Below are positions 53,367 through 64,000 of a stretch of 64,000 bases of DNA, piece after piece. A program made the position numbers and the translations under genes. How positions within the stretch are numbered: position 1 is the stretch's first letter; each line of letters starts with the position of its first letter. The stretch is taken from the NCBI GenBank assembly GCA_965221905.1, contig OZ244922.1, positions 2,016,001 through 2,080,000 on the forward strand, given 5' to 3'. Source of the stretch: Chloroflexota bacterium (GTDB taxonomy: Bacteria > Chloroflexota > UBA11872 > VXOZ01). The notes under the pieces are model-generated. The model had not been told where the DNA came from, made no database searches, and saw nothing but the letters and a program-made list of their open reading frames with translations.

Positions 53367-53529
53367 TGGTTAATCGCCACACTCTAAAGACTTCCCATTC
53401 AGCAAAGGCGTGGTCGTGATTGAAAAGACACTAAGATGTACCCTATTAGCAATGTTGAAGATGGCTGGGTCTAGTCGTGTGATACGCTGAGAAAGTGACG
53501 ATGGGCAACTTCTAGCGCAAGGGTCAATT

Positions 53530-55392
53530 GTGGCTGACGATAACTCCCAAGAATCTGATAGTGGCGATCCTCTTGACGGGGTAATGCGAATCATTAGAGA
53601 GATTGCCGAGAGGTCAGTGGACGGTGACTATCTCTACCGGGGTGAACCAAAGCATTACCGTCGCGTGTCATCGAGCCTTTACCGAAGACGCGAAGAAATC
53701 GAGATGGAAGACTTAGACATCAACATCGCCCAAACTGAGATTCTGAAAGTCGCAAGGACTTTTGTTGGTCACGCCGATGATGAGCGAATATTGACACAAC
53801 TTCAACACTACGGCTCTGCTACCAACTTGATTGATTTTACCACTGACAGCCTAATAGCGCTGTTCTTTGCTTGCGATGGGGAGCCTTCAGAGAATGGAAG
53901 GGTCCTTCTACTGATCAAGTCGAAGTATCCTTGGATGCCACCGCAGTCGCCTGAGAATCGCGCGATCGCCCAGAGAAGTGTTTTTGTCCAATCACCGAAG
54001 GGATATGTGATACCAGACAAGTCGGTGTGTGTGCCTCATATGCTAAAGGGAGAGATTCTCGAGTATCTTAGGAAACATCATGGTTTGACAGTTGCAGCAA
54101 TCTACAATGACATTCACGGCTTCATTCGCTATCACGAAGGTCGCGAGAGTGCCTATATTGAGTTCTATGCGGGGAAAACCCATCAGGAAAAGGGGGAAAA
54201 TGCGAAGGCGATTGATCGTTACAGCAACGCAATTGCACTTATTCCGCAACTGCATGGAGCCTTCAACAACCGTGGTACAGTTTACGCCACAATGGGCGAG
54301 TACCGACGCGCAATTCAAGACTACGATAAGGCCCTGAAACTAGATCCTCTTTACGTTGGCAGTTATGTTAATCGCGGCAATGCCTACCTGCAGTTGGATG
54401 AATCAAAAGCTGCGTTTGACGACTTTAAGAGTGCTATAGAAATTGAGCCAACCTACTCTGAAGCGTATTGCAGTCGTGGTGCTGCACATATTAAAACTGG
54501 CAACTATGAACTCGCTATACGCGACCTAGATAGGTCGATAGAGCTTCGCCCTCACTATGCGGAAGCTCTTGTATTTCGGGCCATGGCATATGCGCAGCAA
54601 GGGGAATCTGAACGCGGTTCTCAAGACCTCGACAAAGCCATAGAATTAGACCCAGACTACGCGGATGCATACGAGCATCGAGGAAGATACCTAATCGACA
54701 AAAGAGAGAAAGACCGGGCAATTCAAGACTTTAGCAGGCTATTGGAATTGAGGCCCAATTCCGCGGTCGCACATAACGGTCGTGGTATCGCTCTATTGCT
54801 CAAGAATCAGATCGACCGCGCCATAGATGACTTTGATAGGGCGTTAGAGATCAACCCCCAATTTGCTGAAGCACTCTGTGGCCGCGGAGATGCCTACTGC
54901 GCGAAGAGAGATTATGGTACTGCAATCCAAAACTACAGTTCGGCAATCGCGATAGACCCAAATTATGCGAACGCTTACAACAATCGGGGTAACTCCCGTA
55001 GATATCGGGGAGAGTTCGATAAAGCAATTCAGGACTTCAACAGAGCACTAGAGCTCAAAATCAATGACCAGGTTGCCACTTATAACAATCGTGCCCATAC
55101 CTTTAGCGAAATGAAGAAGTACGATTGCGCAATTCAAGACTACACTAAGTCCATTCAATTGAGGGCTCAAAATCCGGAAGCCTACTTTAGCCGGAGCATG
55201 TGCCGATTGATCCTGAAGCGGTGGAAAGGTGCCCGGAAGGACTTAATTGCAGCAAGCAAGCATGGTTTCGATATAAAGGCTGAGTTCCGAGACACTTTCG
55301 CGAGCGCGGCCAACTTCGAAAGACGTTTCGAAGTTAAGTTGCCTCCTAATGTTGTAGCTATGCTTTCGCCCGCTAGCAATGCGAAGGGATAG
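53530..55392 (+). CDS. FRG-domain protein with long TPR array
   Basis: YLYRGE, LQHYGSATNLIDFT...ALFFAC, RAIAQRSVF; about 10 TPRs (AYNNRG-type); AT-richer than flanks. Confidence 0.88.
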   Translation: MADDNSQESDSGDPLDGVMRIIREIAERSVDGDYLYRGEPKHYRRVSSSLYRRREEIEMEDLDINIAQTEILKVARTFVGHADDERILTQLQHYGSATNLIDFTTDSLIALFFACDGEPSENGRVLLLIKSKYPWMPPQSPENRAIAQRSVFVQSPKGYVIPDKSVCVPHMLKGEILEYLRKHHGLTVAAIYNDIHGFIRYHEGRESAYIEFYAGKTHQEKGENAKAIDRYSNAIALIPQLHGAFNNRGTVYATMGEYRRAIQDYDKALKLDPLYVGSYVNRGNAYLQLDESKAAFDDFKSAIEIEPTYSEAYCSRGAAHIKTGNYELAIRDLDRSIELRPHYAEALVFRAMAYAQQGESERGSQDLDKAIELDPDYADAYEHRGRYLIDKREKDRAIQDFSRLLELRPNSAVAHNGRGIALLLKNQIDRAIDDFDRALEINPQFAEALCGRGDAYCAKRDYGTAIQNYSSAIAIDPNYANAYNNRGNSRRYRGEFDKAIQDFNRALELKINDQVATYNNRAHTFSEMKKYDCAIQDYTKSIQLRAQNPEAYFSRSMCRLILKRWKGARKDLIAASKHGFDIKAEFRDTFASAANFERRFEVKLPPNVVAMLSPASNAKG

Positions 55393-55547
55393 CTAGAGGT
55401 CGCCCTACAGGTGCACTTACGTCCTAGTCTCCTTCCGTCCAGCCAAATGCATGGCAGACTTTGCGTCACTCTGTATGAGTGCTTCGAGGAACTCGAGCCC
55501 AGGTTGCTGGATGGGTGTTGTGCCGAGGGGCACGGCAGCATCTGGCC

Positions 55548-58500
55548 CTAGCGGTCTACGATAGTTGTGGTGTCGCCGGCTTTTAAGGCGTTCATGTAGG
55601 CGCGGATGAGGTTGCGGGTGCGGTAGCGGTTGAAAGAGGCTTCGTCTTGGCGGCGGACGATGGGGAAGGTGCTCAGGATGTAGTCGGCGTCCTCCCGCGA
55701 GATGCCGTAGAGGTGGAAGTAGAGGGCGTCCAGGCGGGCGCGCAGGTGGCGGCGGTCTTCGTCGTTCCAGATGAAGGGCGGGCCGCCGTAACCCAGGTCG
55801 CGGGCGAACGGCGCCATGTCGTGGGCGGTGTACGTGAGGCGCAGCACGTGGTCGCGGACGAGGTCGCGAGCGGTCTTATCCCCGAATTGGCGGTCGTAGT
55901 CCTCCGGCGCGATCACGGGCAGTTGCTCGATCATAAACAACTTTAGATGAGTGCCCGGTACCTTTTGCCGTGAAACAAAATCAAATACAAAAGCATTGAA
56001 ATTCCCTAGCAAGCATGCAATGTCAAGAGCGAGTAATTGGTCCTTATCAGGAAGCAGGAGGGCCAGTGTATCCGAACAGCCAACTTGAGGTACAACTGTA
56101 GATGTCATCGTGCGGGCATTTGTCGCCGCTGTTATCTCCTTGAATGCTAGCATGAATTGCAATTGCTGGGTTTCAACTCTCTCACGCTGATTAACCCAAA
56201 ATCGAGGACTTGCAGTGAAGCGGGAATCTTGATGCTGTTTCTCAAGCGTTGGGACTGGCTGTCCAGGCCGAAACAAGTTGTCACTCCGAGTAATTATCGA
56301 AGCAGCACGATGGTCGAACGCTTGTACGGTCTTTCCTTCGAATAGTGGCAGACAAGAGTCGTCACCTTTCTTCCATCGATTGAATTCAACAGGGTAAAAC
56401 CCGTCTCTGTCCAACTGCTCCGCCGTGCGGAACAACTTCGAGTCGTTCTGCGAATGGAAGAGTCCTTGCCGATACTTGACCGGCCAGGTCTTGTGCTCTG
56501 TGCCGTCGGAGCGGTTGACGAGCACGGGGTGGCGGGCGTAGATGTCGCGGGTGATGTCGGCGTCGCGGCGGGTGCGGAATACCGGGGAGGTGCCGGTGTT
56601 GGGGTTGACGCGGGCAAAGTCGTCCGGCGCCAGCGGGAAGCAGCGGTCCTCATCAGTGATGGTCTTGGTGTCGTGGAGGAAGAAGGCGCACGCGGTGGCG
56701 TCGAATTGCCGCTGCGCGCCGCCAAAGATGAGGGCGCAGAACTTGAAAGAGGCGTGCACGTCCTTGAAGAATATCTTCCTGTTTTCAAAGTCGTACAGCC
56801 CGGCCACGCGCCCGCGGGTGGAAACCGACTTGAAGAATTTTGCCGCGGTCAGATCGGCGTAGATACCGGACGGGGTGAGCAGGCCGACCAGACCCTCGGC
56901 CTTGACCAGGCGCATGGCGCGCTCCACGAAGAGCGAATAGAGGTTTATGTCGCCGCCGCCTAGCAGTGGATAGTGACCGGAAGCCCGCACCAGCCGGCCC
57001 AAACTGTCGGCGCGCCCTTTGGCGTCATCGAAATCAGCGGCCAACGGATCGCCCTGCGTACGCAATTCGCCAATGGCGGCCCGGCGCGCCGCCGCGGTGG
57101 GGGCGCGGGCGAGTTCCGGCGCGCGGGTGGCAAACCACTCCACTTCCTGCAGCTTGATGCGGTCCCAGGGCGGGTTGCCGATCACGGCGTCGAATCCGCC
57201 GCGCGGGTGGGCGTCCTGCCACTGCTTCCACACCCCGGGAAAGGCCGCCTCCCAGTGCAGAAAGGTCTCGCGGTCGGCGATGGCTCTGGCGTTATGCCAG
57301 AGATTGGCGAATTCGGTGGCGCTCTGTATGTTGTCCGGCGTTGGCGGATTGTCCCCTTGGCCGGACGCAGGTTGCAAACCTACGCTACCGGACGCAGGTT
57401 GCGGACCCGCGCTGCCGGACGCAGGTTGCAAACCTGCGCTACCGGAAGATGCTGCGTCAGGAGAAGATGGATTCCGGCTTTCGCCGGAATGACGGTCACT
57501 GGGTGCACGGGAATGAGCGATGTCATCCGTTGTTTGAGACTCAATTGCGTCGGGCCCGTGGGCCAGGAGCTTGAAGGCGTCGTTCGGCTGTCGGCCGAGG
57601 GTCTCGAACAACGAGGCCTCAAAGAGGGTGCGTTCCTGCTTCTTCATGCCCGCGGTCAGCCAGCGCAAGCCGCAGAGCACGTCGAGCACACTGCGGAGGT
57701 CGGCGGTGGTATTTTCCACTTCCCGGAACAGGGTCGCGGACTCCCGCACCTCGGCCACGTCGGCATCGGAGAGCAGTTCGATGTGCTCCATCCCCTCAGC
57801 GGCTGTCTCAGCGCCGGCAACGGCGGACTGCACAAACAAGCCGCCCATGCGATTCAGTTCGTCCACGGCCTCCTCCACGCGCAGGCCGAGCAGCGAGTCG
57901 CCGCAGCGCAGGTGGTGGTCCAGGAACGAAAGCGGCGCGCCCACGGTGAAACTATGCAGCCAAAGCGAGACTTTGGCCAGCTCCACGGCCAGGGGGTTCT
58001 TGTCCACGCCGTAGATGCAGCGCTTGAGCACCATGCGCCGGATGATGGCTTGGTCGGTGAGTTGCAGCTTGTCGATTGCCCAATCCGACTCACGCGCCCG
58101 CTGCAGAATTTCTTCCCGAATTACCGCAATGCGCTCCACCAGCGGCGAAACGTAGGCGCTACCGCAGCCGTCGTCCAGCCATTCCGGCACGGCAGGCACG
58201 TATTCGACCATGTGGGCGATCTCGTCGGAGAGATAGTCCACGGCGGTCACCAGGAAGTGGCCGCTGCCCATGGCCGGATCGAGAATCTTCAGGTCGAGCG
58301 CGGCCACCGCCGGGTCGAGCGCCTCCAATTCCTGGCGGCGCTCCGGCTTGGGGCGATGATCGCTTCTGAGCTCCTTTGCTCGAGTCTCAAACGCCTTGAG
58401 GCGCTCCTCCACCAAAGGTTCAAGAGTCTTTTCCACGATTAGGTCGACGAGTTCCTGGGGCGTGTAGAAACTGCCGCTGTCCTTGCGGGCGTAGGGGTTG

Positions 58501-59814
58501 GGCCGCATGATGATTTTGCCGTCATCGCCGCGCACCGGCTCCTGTTCCAGCAGGCGCTCGTAGATTGAGCCGAGCTGTTGCACCGACATGTCGCGATAGT
58601 TGACGAAAGAGCGGACGCTGTCGCCTTTGCGCGCACTGCGCGTATGGCTGAGGTCATAGATGATGCCGGCGATAACCGAATCCGGCAAGCGGACGTGCTG
58701 CAAAAGCGGCGCGGAGTCCGGGGCGAAGAGCCCGCCGTTGTAGGGAGGGAGGCCGATAGAAGGATCGCCGCGGTCGATAAGCCTGAACAGCGTGTTGAGG
58801 CGGTCGTAGTAGTTGGTTGCCGCGCTGGAGAAGGTATCGCCAGTCTGCATGCGCGCGGCAACGTCGTCGCGCACACGCTTGCGCAGGCCGTAATCCGTCA
58901 TAGCGCGAATCGTTGACCGGCAAGAGGCCGCGGTCCTCGGCGTAGAGAATGAAGAGGAGCCTATAGAGGAATATGAGAGCCGCGTGACGCACCGCCGTGA
59001 AGTCATCACTGGGATCGCCTTCTGCGGCATAGCGATCCGCAAGCGCTTCGACCAAGTGGGGGAATACGCGCGAAAACACAACTTCCGAGAGGTCTGCGGC
59101 CACCCGCTGCTCATAGCGCTTTCCTTCCGCGATCGCATCTTCCAGGAAGGTAGTCGCCGCGCCCTCTTGCGCTATGAATGATTCGCGCCTGAAGAGTAGG
59201 AAGATCGCGCGGAGGGCGTGGTCGTCGTCCTGCTGCAAAAGGGCTTTCAGGTCCGCTTCGTAAAAGCCGCTGGCACGGGGACGGGCGCGGAAATCGTAGA
59301 GCCGCCAGACTGCGCCGTTGGTCAAGATGCCCCAGCGGATGCGACCGTCGGTCACTTTATCTGCCGTGTCGAGATACCTGAGAATCTGGCCGTGAGGGGT
59401 GCCGCGGCGGGTGGTTTCACCGCTGTCGCGGTTGTCGAGCGGCAAGCCGAAGCGTTTGCTCTCCTCGATTACAAGGGCGTCTTGATAGCGATTTTCGGAA
59501 CCCTCGCGCGCTGCGGCCCTGTCCTTCGCCTCCCCATCGGCAAAGAGCAGGTAATCGGGAATGTCCTCTTGGCGGTCTGAGCCTTGCTGGGGCATATGGT
59601 TGTCCCAGCCTAGCAATTCCAGGAGCGGACGCACCACCTCGTTTTCAGTTTGTGCCTCGTTGGGTTCGTGAGCGGAGGAAATCTTATCCAGAATTTCGCG
59701 CAGGGATTGCTTGAACGCGGTAAATGTCAGCGGCTGCCGCACGCAATCCTGCCAGGCATCGGTTGCCTGGATGCCTTCGGTAAGGAAGTATTGTGTGAAG
59801 AGTTGACCGATCAT
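55548..59814 (-). pseudogene. Type IIG (Eco57I-like) restriction-modification enzyme with one +1 frameshift near 58895
   Basis: N-terminal PD..ExK nuclease (IPDY..EESK, ILTNG); MTase motifs DPAMGSGHF and GNPPW; TAT GAC G GAT TAC has one extra G; removing it gives DSRYDDYGLRK and a ~1420 aa ORF. Confidence 0.87.
57361..57495. repeat. Three 27-bp palindromic units plus a REP palindrome, in frame inside the R-M gene
   Basis: CCGGACGCAGGTTGCAAACCT(A/G)CGCTA at 57361, 57388 and 57415; GGATTCCGGCTTTCGCCGGAATGACG at 57469. Confidence 0.85.
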
Positions 59815-59932: not shown

Positions 59933-60121
59933 CTATTGCTTTTGCAGCCATCCGCGGACGATCCAGAATAGGTTGGCGAGTGCGATGGCTATGGCGGCGA
60001 CCCAGAGGGCGGTGCCGAGAGTAGGATTTGCCGCCAAGCCGATGCCTTGTCCGAGAAAGAAGACGATGACCGCCACCACGAAGAGCACGATATGGGCGAT
60101 TTTCTTAAGCTTTTTCCGCAT
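59933..60121 (-). CDS. Small two-TM membrane protein
   Basis: MRKKLKK followed by two hydrophobic helices; GGGAG RBS. Confidence 0.65.
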   Translation of the reverse strand: MRKKLKKIAHIVLFVVAVIVFFLGQGIGLAANPTLGTALWVAAIAIALANLFWIVRGWLQKQ

Positions 60122-60259: not shown

Positions 60260-61276
60260 TCACGCCAATTCGGCCTTCGTAGACGGGAGCAGGCGCATGC
60301 GCACGTCCACCTCCAGGATGCTGCTAACGAAACCGTTGAGAATGCCTTTGGAAGGGGGCACGTCTTGATAGTCGCGTCCCACAGCGATAGAAACGTGGTG
60401 GTCTCCGGCAAGGGTCTGGTTGGTGGGATCGAAACCAACCCAGCCGAGGCCGGGCAACCGGCACTCTACCCATGCGTGGGTGGCGCTCTGCGGCGTCTGC
60501 GACGACGTCTGCGTCTGCGACAAAGTCGGCGTCTGCGACAGAGTCTGAGTCTGTGACAAAGTCAGCGCGTGCTCACGGGATTCACCCGAAACGTGCACGT
60601 AGCCGGATACATAGCGGGACGGCACGCCCCAAGAGCGCGCAACAGCAATCATGACGTGGGCGTAGTCCTGGCAGACACCCCGCCCGGTCTCCAAGATGTG
60701 GTCGATGGGGGAGGCCACCGAGGTGCTGCCAGGAACGTAGTCGAAGACGTGATGCAGCTTCTCGGACAGCATTCCCACAGCCTGCAGAGGGTCGTCGGCC
60801 GGCTCGATGCCTTCACGCTGGATGAAGGAGGAGAGGGCGGGCGACGACTGCGCTAACGGGCTGTCATGGGTAAAGTCCCAAAGCGCAAAAGAGTGCTGCC
60901 AGGCTTGAATCTTGTCCCATGCGCCGGAATTCAAAGAGCCCGGTAGCTGGGCCGCAGGTCCGGTTTCAACCGAAGAGCGGGCCACAATCTCGAGCGACTC
61001 GTGCCGCTGATGCACGCTAAAGACGTGCCTTGTGTTGCCGTAGGGGTCTGTTGCTGTGCTTAGTGTGGAGAGCGGGTGCGTGGAAAGATCGAACTGCAGG
61101 AGTTGCTGTCTCACGCTTTCGCGCGGTCTTAAACACAGGGACATCACAGAGTACCACGCCGGTGAGGCATAGCGGTAGCGGGATACGTGCTCTATCTCAA
61201 AGCGGTTCGATCTGGCGATGCGACCACTAGATTCTGCACTGTGTTCGGAGCGGCTGGATAAACTCGAGTCGGCCAT
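60260..61276 (-). CDS. Transglutaminase-like protein (Bact_transglu_N plus core)
   Basis: EHVSRYRY, LRPR, GVCQDYAH, RYVSGY, THAWVE, GFDPTN, GRDYQDV; start 61276 or 61306. Confidence 0.92.
   Translation of the reverse strand: MADSSLSSRSEHSAESSGRIARSNRFEIEHVSRYRYASPAWYSVMSLCLRPRESVRQQLLQFDLSTHPLSTLSTATDPYGNTRHVFSVHQRHESLEIVARSSVETGPAAQLPGSLNSGAWDKIQAWQHSFALWDFTHDSPLAQSSPALSSFIQREGIEPADDPLQAVGMLSEKLHHVFDYVPGSTSVASPIDHILETGRGVCQDYAHVMIAVARSWGVPSRYVSGYVHVSGESREHALTLSQTQTLSQTPTLSQTQTSSQTPQSATHAWVECRLPGLGWVGFDPTNQTLAGDHHVSIAVGRDYQDVPPSKGILNGFVSSILEVDVRMRLLPSTKAELA
60491..60563 (-). repeat. In-frame 18-bp tandem repeat (TLSQTQ-like, four copies)
   Basis: Encodes TLSQTQ TLSQTP TLSQTQ TSSQTP between RYVSGY and the catalytic His. 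Confidence 0.85.
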
Positions 61277-61283
61277 GAGGTCA

Positions 61284-62249
61284 TTATACGGGAGAGTCTT
61301 CGACATGGTAGTCGAAGTAGGTCACCGCAATCAGGTCGTGAAGGTCCCGGCAAAAGGCGCCCATCTGTCGCAAAGCCTGTTCACGGTCTTCCAGGTCGGG
61401 CCAATCGTAGCGGATTAAGGACACGAGCCGACCCGCCAGCCGCCGCGTCGCGCCACTGGAATCCGCATTTGGCCCGGGTCCGATAGCGTCAAGTTGCTGT
61501 CCCACGATATCGAGCGAAAAACAGAGGGAGTCGGGGAGCAGCGGATCTGTCACGAGCAGATCCAAAACATGGTTAGGGTGAACCTCCACGCTGTAGCTGC
61601 GGTTATAGACCTCCAAGGCGTGGTATGCGCGCAGCAAGCTAACCCAGTCAGCTTCGGAAGACTCCTCAAAGTGCACTTCGGAGGCAAGTTGCGCCAATAG
61701 CAGCGAAATCGTGATCTGGGCCCGCTCGATCAAACGACCGAGTTGCAGGAAGTGCCAACCCTCGTCGCGGTACATTGTTGCTGCAGCCACACCCATGAAG
61801 GTGTCGATGTCTGCGGTCACCCCAGCGTAGAAACTCTCCGGAGACGTGGACCAAATATCTTGTATGTCCCGATTCTGGAGCTGAAGATAGACAAGGTTTA
61901 GGTGCGACCACATTTCCGCGCTAATGCAGTTTCGCGTTTGACGGGCATTCTCTCGCGCTGCGGCGAAGCAATTCCACAGCGAGCCAAGATTCGAAGGCTC
62001 AAACGTCAGGTCGTCGGCAAGGGTATACGAGTCCGCCAGCGTGAAGTCATCACTGTCGCTGAGTTCGAGACTGCCGCCAGGCGTCAACCGGTCGACACTT
62101 ATGTAAATGCGACTCCAGCCGAAGTAAATTTCCTGGACAGGGCGATCCACCAGAGCCGCCGTCTGCAATTGCAGAAAGCGGCTGAGGTGTTGCGCCCGTT
62201 CCAAGTAGCGCCCCATCCAGAAGAGGCTTTGTGCGCTTCGTGAGAGCAC
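61284..62249 (-). CDS. Alpha-E domain protein (DUF403)
   Basis: MLSRSAQSLFWMGRYLERA, ARENAR, MYRDEGWHFLQLGRLIERA (two ER motifs). Confidence 0.92.
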   Translation of the reverse strand: MLSRSAQSLFWMGRYLERAQHLSRFLQLQTAALVDRPVQEIYFGWSRIYISVDRLTPGGSLELSDSDDFTLADSYTLADDLTFEPSNLGSLWNCFAAARENARQTRNCISAEMWSHLNLVYLQLQNRDIQDIWSTSPESFYAGVTADIDTFMGVAAATMYRDEGWHFLQLGRLIERAQITISLLLAQLASEVHFEESSEADWVSLLRAYHALEVYNRSYSVEVHPNHVLDLLVTDPLLPDSLCFSLDIVGQQLDAIGPGPNADSSGATRRLAGRLVSLIRYDWPDLEDREQALRQMGAFCRDLHDLIAVTYFDYHVEDSPV

Positions 62250-62279
62250 GTGTGCTTAATTCCTTAGCTCAGGTAAACG

Positions 62280-63677
62280 CTAGTCCTCATCATGCTCTTC
62301 AGGCATCAGCACAAATTCGGGATAGGCCTCAAGGCCCAACTCGGCGGTGTCCTGACCCAGACGCTCAGCTTGCACCGAAACACGCAGGCCGAGGGTCAAT
62401 CCTATGACCTTCCAGAGGATCAGCGAAACGATGAAGACGAATGCGCCAACTGCTAGAACACCAATGAGCTGCACAACAATGTCGCCGCCTGCGACAATGG
62501 CAACCGCCAGCGTGCCCCAGATGCCTGCCATCAAGTGAGCGGGGATTGCGCCAACGACGTCATCGAGCTTGACTTTTTCAAGCAGTTTGAGACCTAGGGT
62601 GCAGATGATGCCGCCGATAGCGCCGATTATGACCGCCCAGTAGTGTTGAGTGATGTCGGGGCCGGCCGTAATCGAGACGAGTCCTGCAATGGCTCCGTTC
62701 AAGCCGGCGAAGAGGTCAGTGCGTCCGAGGAGCGGCCGCGAGATTATGAGGGCGGCCATAACACCGGCTGCTGCCGCGAGGTTGGTGTTTACCAAAATGT
62801 GGCCGATTGAAATCGCGTCGGCTGCGCTGCCCAGCGCCAACTGCGAGCCGCCGTTGAAACCAAACCAACCAAGCCACAGGATGAAGACGCCCAGAGTCAC
62901 CAACAAGACGTTCGAAGGCGACGTTAGCCTGACTGAACCATCCTTGCGGTACTTGCCAAGCCTGGGTCCGACGATAATCACACCCGCCAGGGCTGCCCAG
63001 CCACCTGTACTGTGCACGATGGTTGAACCGGCGAAATCCTGGAAACCCATTTCAGCCAGCCAGCCGCCGCCCCACGTCCAAGCGCCGACTACGGGGTAGA
63101 TGACGGCGGTTAGAATTATTATGAAGAGGAAGAACGACCACATCTTGACGCGCTCTGCCAGGGCGCCGGATATGATGGATGCCGTGGTCGCTACGAAGAC
63201 CATCTGGAAGAACCAGTCCGACATGACCGAGTAGCCGCTCTCGATTACGGCCGCCGCGGCGCCCTCGTTACCATCCAGCAATGCTAGTTCGTCAGATGAA
63301 GGCCCATAGAGCAGATTGAAAGAGCCGATCAAGCCCCATAGCCGGTCCCCACTCACGTCCACGTACATCAGGTTGTAGCCGACGAAGAAGTAGGCTAGAC
63401 CGGCGATAGAGTAGAGGCCGATATTCTTTAGGCAAATCATTGAGGCGTTCTTGGTGCGTACCGCGCCGGCTTCGAGCATGGTGAAGCCCGCTGCCATCCA
63501 CATCACCAGTACACCCCAAATGAGGAACGCGAAGGTATTTAGGACAAATGCAGTCTCGCCGTCGGTTGCTGCCTGGGCGACGGGCGGTCGGAACAAGAAA
63601 TAGAGAAACGTCAACAGCAGCACCGCCGCGATGACGGCAATACGCCGATGGCGTGCAAGTACGTCCGTGAATACCAT
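62280..63677 (-). CDS. amt: Ammonium transporter (Amt family)
   Basis: GFTMLEAG, FFQMVF, DFAGSTIVH, GWFGFNGGS, LDDVVGAIPAH (twin His); AAGGAG RBS before 63677. Confidence 0.96.
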   Translation of the reverse strand: MVFTDVLARHRRIAVIAAVLLLTFLYFLFRPPVAQAATDGETAFVLNTFAFLIWGVLVMWMAAGFTMLEAGAVRTKNASMICLKNIGLYSIAGLAYFFVGYNLMYVDVSGDRLWGLIGSFNLLYGPSSDELALLDGNEGAAAAVIESGYSVMSDWFFQMVFVATTASIISGALAERVKMWSFFLFIIILTAVIYPVVGAWTWGGGWLAEMGFQDFAGSTIVHSTGGWAALAGVIIVGPRLGKYRKDGSVRLTSPSNVLLVTLGVFILWLGWFGFNGGSQLALGSAADAISIGHILVNTNLAAAAGVMAALIISRPLLGRTDLFAGLNGAIAGLVSITAGPDITQHYWAVIIGAIGGIICTLGLKLLEKVKLDDVVGAIPAHLMAGIWGTLAVAIVAGGDIVVQLIGVLAVGAFVFIVSLILWKVIGLTLGLRVSVQAERLGQDTAELGLEAYPEFVLMPEEHDED

Positions 63678-63706
63678 AAGCTCTCTCTCCTTTGAGACAC
63701 TAAGCA

Positions 63707-64000
63707 TCAATCATCATCAACCACCCAGAAGTCTTTGCCACCTCCCCCCTGACTAGAGTTGACTACCAAGCTACCGCGGCGCAGAGCGACGCGACAGAGT
63801 GCCCCAGGTACTATGCGGGTCTCGCGGCCGTGCAGCACGAACGGACGTATGTCCACGTGACGCGGCTCGAAGCGGCCGTCAATGAAGCACGGCGCGCGAG
63901 AGAGCGCGAGCACCGGCTGTGAGATGAACCCGGCTGGGTCCGCGCGCAATTGCTCGGCGTATTCCTCACGCTCCTTAGGGGATGCGTGGGGGCCGATAAG
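63707..64000 (-). CDS. Circularly permuted type 2 ATP-grasp protein, C-terminal part
   Basis: ISQPVLALS, PRHVDIRPF, PGALCRVAL, SLVVNSSQGGGGKDFWV. Confidence 0.92.
   Translation of the reverse strand, partial: LIGPHASPKEREEYAEQLRADPAGFISQPVLALSRAPCFIDGRFEPRHVDIRPFVLHGRETRIVPGALCRVALRRGSLVVNSSQGGGGKDFWVVDDD

Follow-up and report, generated by a model that had tools for sequence, protein, structure and literature searches.

An ammonium transporter gene within a CP-ATP-grasp/Alpha-E/transglutaminase-like operon of a Chloroflexota bacterium and its possible role in nitrogen acquisition

Introduction

A 64,000-nt stretch of a Chloroflexota genome (assembly GCA_965221905.1, contig OZ244922.1, positions 2,016,001 to 2,080,000; hereafter the window) ends in four minus-strand genes (60260-64000) which encode, in order of reading, a circularly permuted (CP) ATP-grasp protein, an ammonium transporter (Amt), an Alpha-E protein and a transglutaminase-like protein. 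The first, third and fourth form a known triad, and the locus raises the question of why an ammonium transporter gene is placed inside it. A first-pass annotation, made from the sequence alone, had proposed a nitrogen-responsive system in which ammonium uptake feeds, or is regulated by, reversible tagging or a nitrogen-storage peptide.

An operon of Anbu, COG2307, COG2308 and COG1305 genes was described by Valas and Bourne in 2008 (PMC3235984), and Iyer et al. 2009 is cited for the Anbu operon in PMC5666114; the function of the triad/Anbu operon was still unconfirmed according to two structural papers from 2017 (PMC5666114, PMC6376114). In nitrogen-limited B. cenocepacia, the genes that depend most strongly on NtrC/sigma-54 include those for DUF404/407, DUF403 and two transglutaminase-like proteins (PMC5491218), Anbu is upregulated in nitrogen-limited P. 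putida (PMC5666114 and PMC6376114, citing Hervas 2008), and in marine metagenomes the domains of the triad vary together with those of urea metabolism (PMC3597751). No paper describing amt inside a triad operon was found by full-text literature searches, whose coverage left out most subscription journals. The triad is widespread and has been on record since 2008-2009, and its linkage to Amt provides a concrete and cheap experimental handle.

The locus is best explained, with a probability of about 0.6, as a co-transcribed nitrogen-acquisition operon, in which a GlnK-less transporter was recruited into a cassette that is induced by nitrogen starvation in Proteobacteria. This explanation joins observed gene order, conservation, transporter-type features and junction-crossing RNA contigs to a nitrogen-acquisition role that we infer. 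The operon is a conserved, expressed variant of a known orphan operon and is clearly tied to ammonium.

Gene order and conservation of the linkage

The first-pass annotation had described four co-oriented, tightly packed genes with gaps of about 30 nt or less and no terminator between them, and this description was borne out on the minus strand (Table 1). The transglutaminase-like gene overlaps the end of the Alpha-E gene by 23 nt, and the terminator scan returned 7 weak hairpin-plus-T sites (4.0 ± 2.4 in shuffled sequences), none of them in an intergenic gap, every minus-strand match falling within coding sequence. The Amt ATG is preceded by a strong ribosome-binding site, AAGGAGAGAGAG, and the portion of the operon that lies in the window yielded no sigma-70-like site. 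The full ATP-grasp gene (487 aa) extends past the window end to the window-equivalent position 65170. That the four genes behave as one conserved unit is supported.

Public species genomes were scanned with the Amt protein, and 79 loci were kept and mapped by tblastn with the window's proteins. Fifty-two were close Amt loci (≥67% identity over the best-matching segment), and triad linkage was judged within 6 kb. ATP-grasp and Alpha-E genes were present within this distance in 13/52 close loci, in three orders: ATP-grasp>Amt>Alpha-E in L006, L013, L014, L015 and L045 (Chloroflexota by record title, except L006, titled Acidobacteriota), Amt>ATP-grasp>Alpha-E in L017, L025, L033, L041 and L046 (Gemmatimonadota) and ATP-grasp>Alpha-E>Amt in L051, L052 and L063 (Vicinamibacterales). 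Because the pairing with Amt recurs in three orders and three phyla, the enzyme set is regarded as tied to ammonium supply. ATP-grasp and Alpha-E genes were 3-220 nt apart in 17 triad-only loci.

Sampling by genus confirmed that amt between CP_ATPgrasp_2 and Alpha-E is not unique to this genome. Amt directly precedes Alpha-E in all 11 sampled genomes of the window's genus (g1, own genome included), a genus whose relatives have records titled Dehalococcoidia, and the embedded order is present in 8/9 genomes of genus g4, the ninth (G350) having no Alpha-E. Of the 10 sampled g5 genomes with Alpha-E, 7 show the order Amt>ATP-grasp>Alpha-E on one strand and within 5.3 kb; a transglutaminase gene follows Alpha-E in this genus, and Amt is 330 nt from ATP-grasp in L094 and L096. 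Alpha-E was detected in 18 of 151 sampled Gemmatimonadota genomes, with Amt 1.5-1.9 kb upstream on the same strand in 14 of the 18; the four unlinked genomes carry another Alpha-E type (243-256 vs 185-213 bits) and a different Amt, so that the lower-scoring Alpha-E type is linked to Amt in 14/14 genomes. Among 401 sampled Chloroflexota genomes, Alpha-E was present in 114 and a high-identity Amt (≥66%) in 46; besides these high-identity matches the sample holds 254 weaker ones, and linkage to distant Amt paralogues of other classes is possible. Five genomes in the Chloroflexota tallies (G173, G272, G038, G227 and G344) are flagged as unpublished, and no linkage claim rests on them. The triad was found in 3/14 model organisms.

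A quick IQ-TREE phylogeny of ATP-grasp was calculated from 44 rows (hits ≥400 aa, leaving out the split hits L105, L115 and L116). All Amt-linked rows fell, together with six triad-only rows of the same class and G396, into one clade of 32 rows (Shimodaira-Hasegawa-like approximate likelihood ratio test, SH-aLRT, 100), separate from the ATP-grasps of other Chloroflexota families; Gemmatimonadota were sister, and Vicinamibacterales were nested among Chloroflexota rows. The embedded order required 4 changes on this tree, of which the starred branches force only 1. The Amt tree (FastTree, 93 rows, split hit L069 left out) contained a multi-phylum clade of 64 rows (support 99), sister to 27 alphaproteobacterial AmtB rows, and phyla mostly held together within it. 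Taken jointly, the two trees show one triad subtype and one Amt subtype that travel together and have been rearranged relative to each other several times.

Over the best-matching segment, Amt shared 67-77% identity among loci (L006-L072) whose record titles name Chloroflexota, Acidobacteriota, Gemmatimonadota, Actinomycetota, Nitrospirales, Spirochaetia, Binatia, Thermodesulfobacteriota and Proteobacteria, and unlinked copies often adjoin transposase or toxin-antitoxin genes. Horizontal spread of Amt within one habitat is suggested.

These data also bear on neutral hitch-hiking, in which a mobile amt would have landed in the operon by chance and been kept for its expression only, with no functional relation to the triad. 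The similarity of the Amt clade across phyla, the mixed contexts of its unlinked copies and the 39/52 close loci without a triad within 6 kb would all suit such an origin. We nevertheless consider it very improbable, given the three orders in three phyla, the 14/18 linked Gemmatimonadota, the 11/11 and 8/9 genomes in two Chloroflexota genera, the single clade of linked ATP-grasps and the nitrogen theme that recurs in triad regulation elsewhere (PMC5491218).

Transcription and promoter analysis

Twenty public runs (10 studies) contain part of the stretch, and the four metatranscriptomes among them were mapped on the 14.5-kb stretch L099. In each of the four, which belong to two studies, Logan RNA contigs of ~96-98% identity bridged Amt and Alpha-E (records 1, 11, 18 and 25); ATP-grasp and Amt were bridged in two runs, both of the same study (X17 record 13 and X18 record 20). 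Longer RNA contigs spanned RsbW to PII, and response regulator to second amt, in the upstream region described below. Plain DNA carry-over is argued against because RNA depth, calculated per contig and summed over organisms in runs selected using this stretch, was zero in every run along the final 950 bases of L099 and near zero within the kinase gene. The RNA contigs are compatible with co-transcription.

A spacer of 358 nt separates the ATP-grasp start from a histidine kinase gene upstream on the same strand. Within this otherwise diverged spacer one block, CTTGAAATTG...TTTGnTACTGTTCTGGCG, was conserved in 5/5 genus genomes. It reads TTGAAA, a 17-nt spacer and TACTGT, with an upstream TGn, and its -10 box begins 130-136 nt upstream of the ATP-grasp GTG start. 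The four genes would form one transcription unit, most likely transcribed from this genus-conserved sigma-70-type promoter. No sigma-54/NtrC promoter was recognised: sites of the form GG-N10-GC gave 12 matches against 11.6 expected in 19 kb, and the sole match in the spacer is without the GG. The Rfam scan of the leader returned no family at E ≤ 1, the glnA RNA motif included, and RNAalifold revealed no conserved fold in 5 leaders, their consensus having an energy of -7.0 kcal/mol and incurring a covariation penalty.

The upstream cassette and the proposed mechanism

Upstream of the histidine kinase follow, in order, genes for a Peripla_BP_6 binding protein, an RsbW-like kinase, a response-regulator/PP2C phosphatase and a STAS antagonist, and beyond the STAS gene a divergent PII-like gene and a second amt. 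Over its first ~430 residues the histidine kinase is similar to the sensor region of TorS, although its TIGR02956 score of 179.7 bits is far under the cut-off of 676.5. We take the cassette to be comparable to the TorT-TorS kinase and to partner switches of the RsbU/V/W type. As with TorT-TorS, a binding protein stands beside the kinase, but no trimethylamine N-oxide genes are nearby; as in RsbU/V/W, a response-regulator PP2C, an RsbW-like kinase and a STAS antagonist occur together, but no sigma factor is nearby.

The cassette is kept upstream of the operon in g1 and g4, upstream of an Amt-less triad in genus g6, and also in Gemmatimonadota and Vicinamibacterales. It directly precedes Amt at L049, where no triad is present, and Amt>STAS adjacency was found at L023, L027, L032, L034 and L038. 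A same-strand DUF2461 gene lies between histidine kinase and ATP-grasp in genus g4 (L089:7059-7766, L090:7352-8038, L091:6535-7293).

The proposed nitrogen-acquisition operon would work as follows. A marine-subtype, GlnK-less Amt would have been recruited into the CP ATP-grasp/Alpha-E/transglutaminase-like cassette and would take up or recapture NH4+. An amide-linked nitrogen compound would be processed by the ATP-grasp/Alpha-E ligase and, at loci that have it, the transglutaminase-like hydrolase. The coupling would be at least co-expression under one nitrogen-status input, which probably comes from the upstream binding-protein/TorS-like kinase/response-regulator PP2C/RsbW/STAS cassette; this cassette would replace the PII/GlnK control that is missing in the genus.

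Similar systems were compared. The known COG2308-COG2307-COG1305 triad has the same three families, with ATP-grasp first, transglutaminase last and both the ER motif and Cys-His-Asp intact. The present operon differs from the Anbu operon in having amt between ATP-grasp and Alpha-E, no Anbu gene and a binding-protein/kinase/partner-switch cassette upstream. The cluster I35_5080-83 of B. cenocepacia H111 comprises the same CP ATP-grasp, Alpha-E and transglutaminase-like genes and is tied to nitrogen limitation (PMC5491218), but its link is at the regulon level, through sigma-54/NtrC, whereas here the promoter is sigma-70-like and amt is physically in the operon.

Several points weigh against the nitrogen-acquisition reading. 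Logan contigs are strandless and cannot prove a single transcript, and they derive from close relatives, not necessarily from this strain. The promoter looks housekeeping-like, sigma-54 sites are not above chance and neither a riboswitch nor a structured leader was detected, so that we infer nitrogen control and have not seen it. Co-transcription is not obligatory, because in three g5 genomes (L092, L093 and L095) Amt is 2.3-3.8 kb from ATP-grasp with an opposite-strand thiamine pyrophosphate (TPP) enzyme gene in between, joined in L093 by a RES-domain gene. In g6 the triad occurs without Amt (binding protein-kinase-ATP-grasp-Alpha-E-transglutaminase), and the clade Amt is located elsewhere. 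Related genomes are, moreover, non-independent samples, and the term nitrogen scavenging would be borrowed, by analogy, from regulon data of distant Proteobacteria. The first-pass idea of a nitrogen-responsive system is kept for the link to nitrogen, which the recurrent linkage, the RNA contigs and the regulon data from Proteobacteria favour (PMC5491218, PMC5666114, PMC6376114), and not for the specific mechanism.

The ammonium transporter, its tail and PII

Amt was assigned to the 'probable ammonium transporter, marine subtype' family, its TIGR03644 score (Table 1) exceeding the curated cut-off of 514. A signal-peptide-like segment stands at its N-terminus and the acidic tail PEEHDED at its C-terminus. 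Residues W206, S278, F272/F274, H222, H381 and D214 were invariant in 26 linked sequences; we take them to correspond to W148, S219, F215, H168, H318 and D160 of E. coli AmtB, presumably the Trp/Ser site, Phe gate, twin His and Asp. Because it is the only Amt match in 9/11 genus genomes (among the matches listed), it is read as a presumably working, housekeeping transporter.

Identity as a sensor Amt or ammonium receptor was rejected. The N1/N2 signature proposed for such receptors, QX6EX15NX2DF/T (PMC11152129), fails at three positions (Q to A, D to L, F to Y), E and N being kept, in a comparison that ended before the distal TX2S/T part, and the protein ends 10 residues past YPEF with no extra or fused transducer domain. 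The best-scoring solved structures were nevertheless those of Sd-Amt1 and Ks-Amt5 (PDB 8qj3 and 6eu6; 228 and 199 bits), receptors that are likewise unpaired with GlnK (PMC11152129); ammonium receptors usually have a fused transducer, which the Amt described here does not.

The glnK-amtB operon offers a further comparison. There too, an Amt with pore residues shares an operon with a presumed nitrogen-status partner, and GlnK plugs AmtB (PMC11152129); it has an adjacent PII gene and the tail GxGSQR, whereas here no PII gene is adjacent and the tail is acidic (VLMPEExDED). No PII gene adjoins the operon's own amt, tblastn found none in any of the 52 close loci, and PF00543 was not detected among the 138 neighbour open reading frames (ORFs) scanned, 111 further ORFs being outside the scan. 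At more distant alphaproteobacterial AmtB loci (53-62% identity) a PII gene lay just upstream in 17/27.

In the window's genome as a whole, amt was matched twice, Alpha-E once and PII once, the last weakly (36 bits); canonical PII scores >100 bits in other genomes. Among the genus relatives, three carry a PII match of 39-40 bits at another place and two, with nearly complete genomes, carry none. Triad-linked genomes of other phyla hold three PII genes (G440), one (G441 and G438) or none (G437 and G439), and because some of them possess PII, its loss is lineage-specific and not a rule of the Amt-triad system. The first-pass statement that no glnK stands beside amt is accordingly correct locally, but it does not describe a trait of this operon, as it applies to the whole Amt clade and the genus is without canonical PII. 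A look upstream, which it had recommended for glnK and Anbu, revealed the divergent PII-like gene beside the second amt, ~7.5 kb upstream and on the same strand, and no Anbu-family gene anywhere in the genome. This second amt, present in only 2/11 genus genomes, is interrupted by an in-frame TAA at codon 329. The gene is intact in L085, the closest relative within the genus, with Leu (TTA) at this codon, so that either a one-base nonsense mutation or a mistake in the assembly accounts for the stop.

The tail YPEFVLMPE(E/P)xDED was found in every readable row of the 64-member Amt clade, whether triad-linked or not, with the exception of L020, and was equally conserved in 38 unlinked Amts. It ends in a variable Asp/Glu run, whereas the PII-linked sister group ends in YPEFGxGSQR. 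Where the clade Amt is unlinked (36 genomes), CP_ATPgrasp_2 is encoded elsewhere in 31 genomes and absent from at least five (G406, G414, G424, G430 and G431). The acidic tail is thus a hallmark of the GlnK-less Amt clade and not of triad linkage. It may serve as a regulatory handle, and nothing singles out ATP-grasp as its writer. The proposal that PEEHDED is a tagging target is not supported, because the tail marks the whole clade, including genomes without ATP-grasp.

The same evidence was used to assess regulatory coupling, in which the ligase, reversed by the transglutaminase-like enzyme, would modify or bind Amt, for example by a tail extension resembling that of RimK on ribosomal protein S6, and so replace plugging by GlnK. 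A clade with no adjacent PII, a genus with a PII-like protein of 36-40 bits or none, and the Asp/Glu run of the tail would agree with this, and RimK-type polyglutamylation of a tail is a precedent for ATP-grasp proteins (PMC11957791). However, the tail is just as conserved in the 38 unlinked Amts and in the five genomes without CP_ATPgrasp_2, other linked genomes own normal PII genes, and the STAS/RsbW partner switch, whose STAS gene follows Amt at five loci, is an equal or better candidate for the regulator. Such coupling therefore seems to us highly unlikely.

The three enzymes of the triad

The ATP-grasp protein is of the circularly permuted type 2 (PF14403/COG2308, 509.6 bits over profile positions 1-374) and matches PDB 3n6x with 545 bits over residues 12-486. 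Alpha-E belongs to its family over profile positions 1-294 and is separated here from CP ATP-grasp by amt; its N-terminus, MLSRSAQSLFWMGRYLERA, bears the ER motif, of which E17 and R18 were invariant in 26 aligned sequences. The AlphaFold model of Alpha-E is all-helical, with 14 helices (mean predicted local distance difference test, pLDDT, 86.9). It had no Foldseek match in the PDB at E ≤ 0.001, the sequence search of the PDB gave 0 matches, and VIA-align wide returned generic helical bundles with a best Z of 10.5, below the ~13 reached by chance for helical models; comparison of the model with the PDB thus provided no informative relative and no functional lead.

The catalytic triad of the transglutaminase-like protein, aligned to 3isr, is intact, with Cys (GVCQDYAH), His (HAWVE) and Asp (GFDPT), and is kept in 11 relatives. 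Between Cys and His lies a low-complexity insert rich in Ser, Gln and Thr (TLSQTQ-type repeats), which is restricted to the window's genus and of strain-variable length. No Anbu/proteasome-family gene (PF00227) was matched in the 99.6%-complete genome, and the arrangement of triad plus Anbu peptidase is therefore not that of this genome. By tblastn with the window's protein, the transglutaminase-like gene had no match within 6 kb either side of Amt in L013, L015, L045, L051, L052 and L063, and according to Pfam a different gene immediately follows Alpha-E (L013, L045) or Amt (L051, L063). A gene of the LOG/'lysine decarboxylase' family follows ATP-grasp>Alpha-E>Amt in Vicinamibacterales (L051:7211-7933, L063:7256-7924).

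Because the transglutaminase gene is absent from the neighbourhood of these six linked loci, the reversible tagging by the full triad that had been suggested at first is not the conserved core of the system, and nothing points to the nitrogen-storage peptide offered alongside it. Replacement of glutamine synthetase by the ATP-grasp protein was ruled out, glutamine synthetase, glutamate synthase (GOGAT) and glutamate dehydrogenase (GDH) all being encoded in the genome.

Direct metabolic coupling deserves separate consideration. ATP-grasp/Alpha-E would be an ammonium-using amidoligase acting with NH3 on an acyl-phosphate, or the transglutaminase-like enzyme would free NH3, and a dedicated Amt would deliver or recapture the ammonia, giving ATP-driven trapping or amide cycling beside glutamine synthetase. 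ATP-grasp proceeds via an acyl-phosphate and transglutaminases release ammonia (PMC6376114). ATP-grasp, Alpha-E and Amt, moreover, are the core that persists across rearrangements, with the transglutaminase not a constant partner; the lower-scoring Alpha-E type is linked to Amt in all 14 sampled Gemmatimonadota genomes that have it, and most genomes with an unlinked clade Amt retain CP_ATPgrasp_2. We still hold this coupling to be doubtful: the complete set of assimilation enzymes leaves no gap that needs a new route, five clade-Amt genomes have no ATP-grasp, the g6 triad has no adjacent Amt, and co-regulation alone accounts for membership of the operon.

It is likewise unlikely, in our estimate, that ATP-grasp/Alpha-E acts directly with a dedicated GlnK-less Amt in either of two ways: as a channel-fed, NH4+-consuming amidoligase, an ATP-driven trap parallel to glutamine synthetase, or as a PII-independent gatekeeper, whose ligase would write nitrogen status onto the transporter and whose transglutaminase-like enzyme would erase it. 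If this were true, a triad orphaned for 15 years would prove to be an ammonium-handling machine. The repeated joining of Amt to the ligase half narrows the search for the triad's substrate to ammonium and amide chemistry.

The nitrogen-acquisition operon also poses a wider question, since a large, multi-phylum Amt clade dispenses with GlnK in lineages where PII is scarce or absent: how is uptake controlled in them? Two candidates are the triad and the partner-switch cassette upstream of it. Several relatives' record titles bear Candidatus names that look sponge-derived, which we judge from the names only. Host ammonium is regarded as a main currency in sponges, and if these lineages live there, the control of ammonium uptake gains ecological weight.

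Feature coordinates and neighbouring genes

Table 1. Positions of the operon genes, the upstream elements and neighbouring features (window positions, unless locus L001 is named)
Feature	Position	Strand	Remarks
CP_ATPgrasp_2, 3' end (last 97 codons + stop)	63707..64000	-	PF14403 66.5 bits on the fragment
ATP-grasp/Amt spacer, 29 nt	63678..63706	-	holds the Amt ribosome-binding site AAGGAGAGAGAG
Amt, 465 aa	62280..63677	-	PF00909 335.7 bits; TIGR03644 527.7 bits
Amt/Alpha-E spacer, 30 nt	62250..62279	-	bridged by RNA contigs of 4 runs
Alpha-E, 321 aa, GTG start	61284..62249	-	PF04168 234.8 bits, full profile
Transglutaminase-like cysteine peptidase/amidase, 348 aa	60260..61306	-	PF08379 + PF01841
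Ser/Gln/Thr-rich insert of the transglutaminase-like protein	60481-60589	-	
Conserved promoter-like block	L001 2323-2295		beyond the window end
Five-gene cassette (STAS, response-regulator PP2C, RsbW-like kinase, Peripla_BP_6, TorS-like histidine kinase)	L001:2529-7975	-	
Divergent PII-like gene	L001:8197-8517		36-37 bits
Second amt	L001:8521-9756	-	genome 2087521-2088756
~61-codon ORF (MRKKLKK...)	59935-60120	-	
Two overlapping ORFs	55548-59814	-	386 aa and 1196 aa
Low-GC patch	53500-55500		GC 0.48 vs 0.58 in the genome

The ~61-codon ORF begins 140 nt past the transglutaminase stop and encodes two hydrophobic stretches, with no terminator-like site between it and the operon. The two overlapping ORFs that follow (MmeI_N/HSDR_N hints in the shorter, Eco57I/N6_Mtase in the longer) look like a frameshift-split restriction-modification gene of the MmeI type, or a two-part system. 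The low-GC patch may be foreign DNA and encodes, on the plus strand, a 620-aa protein with an FRG domain and TPR repeats.

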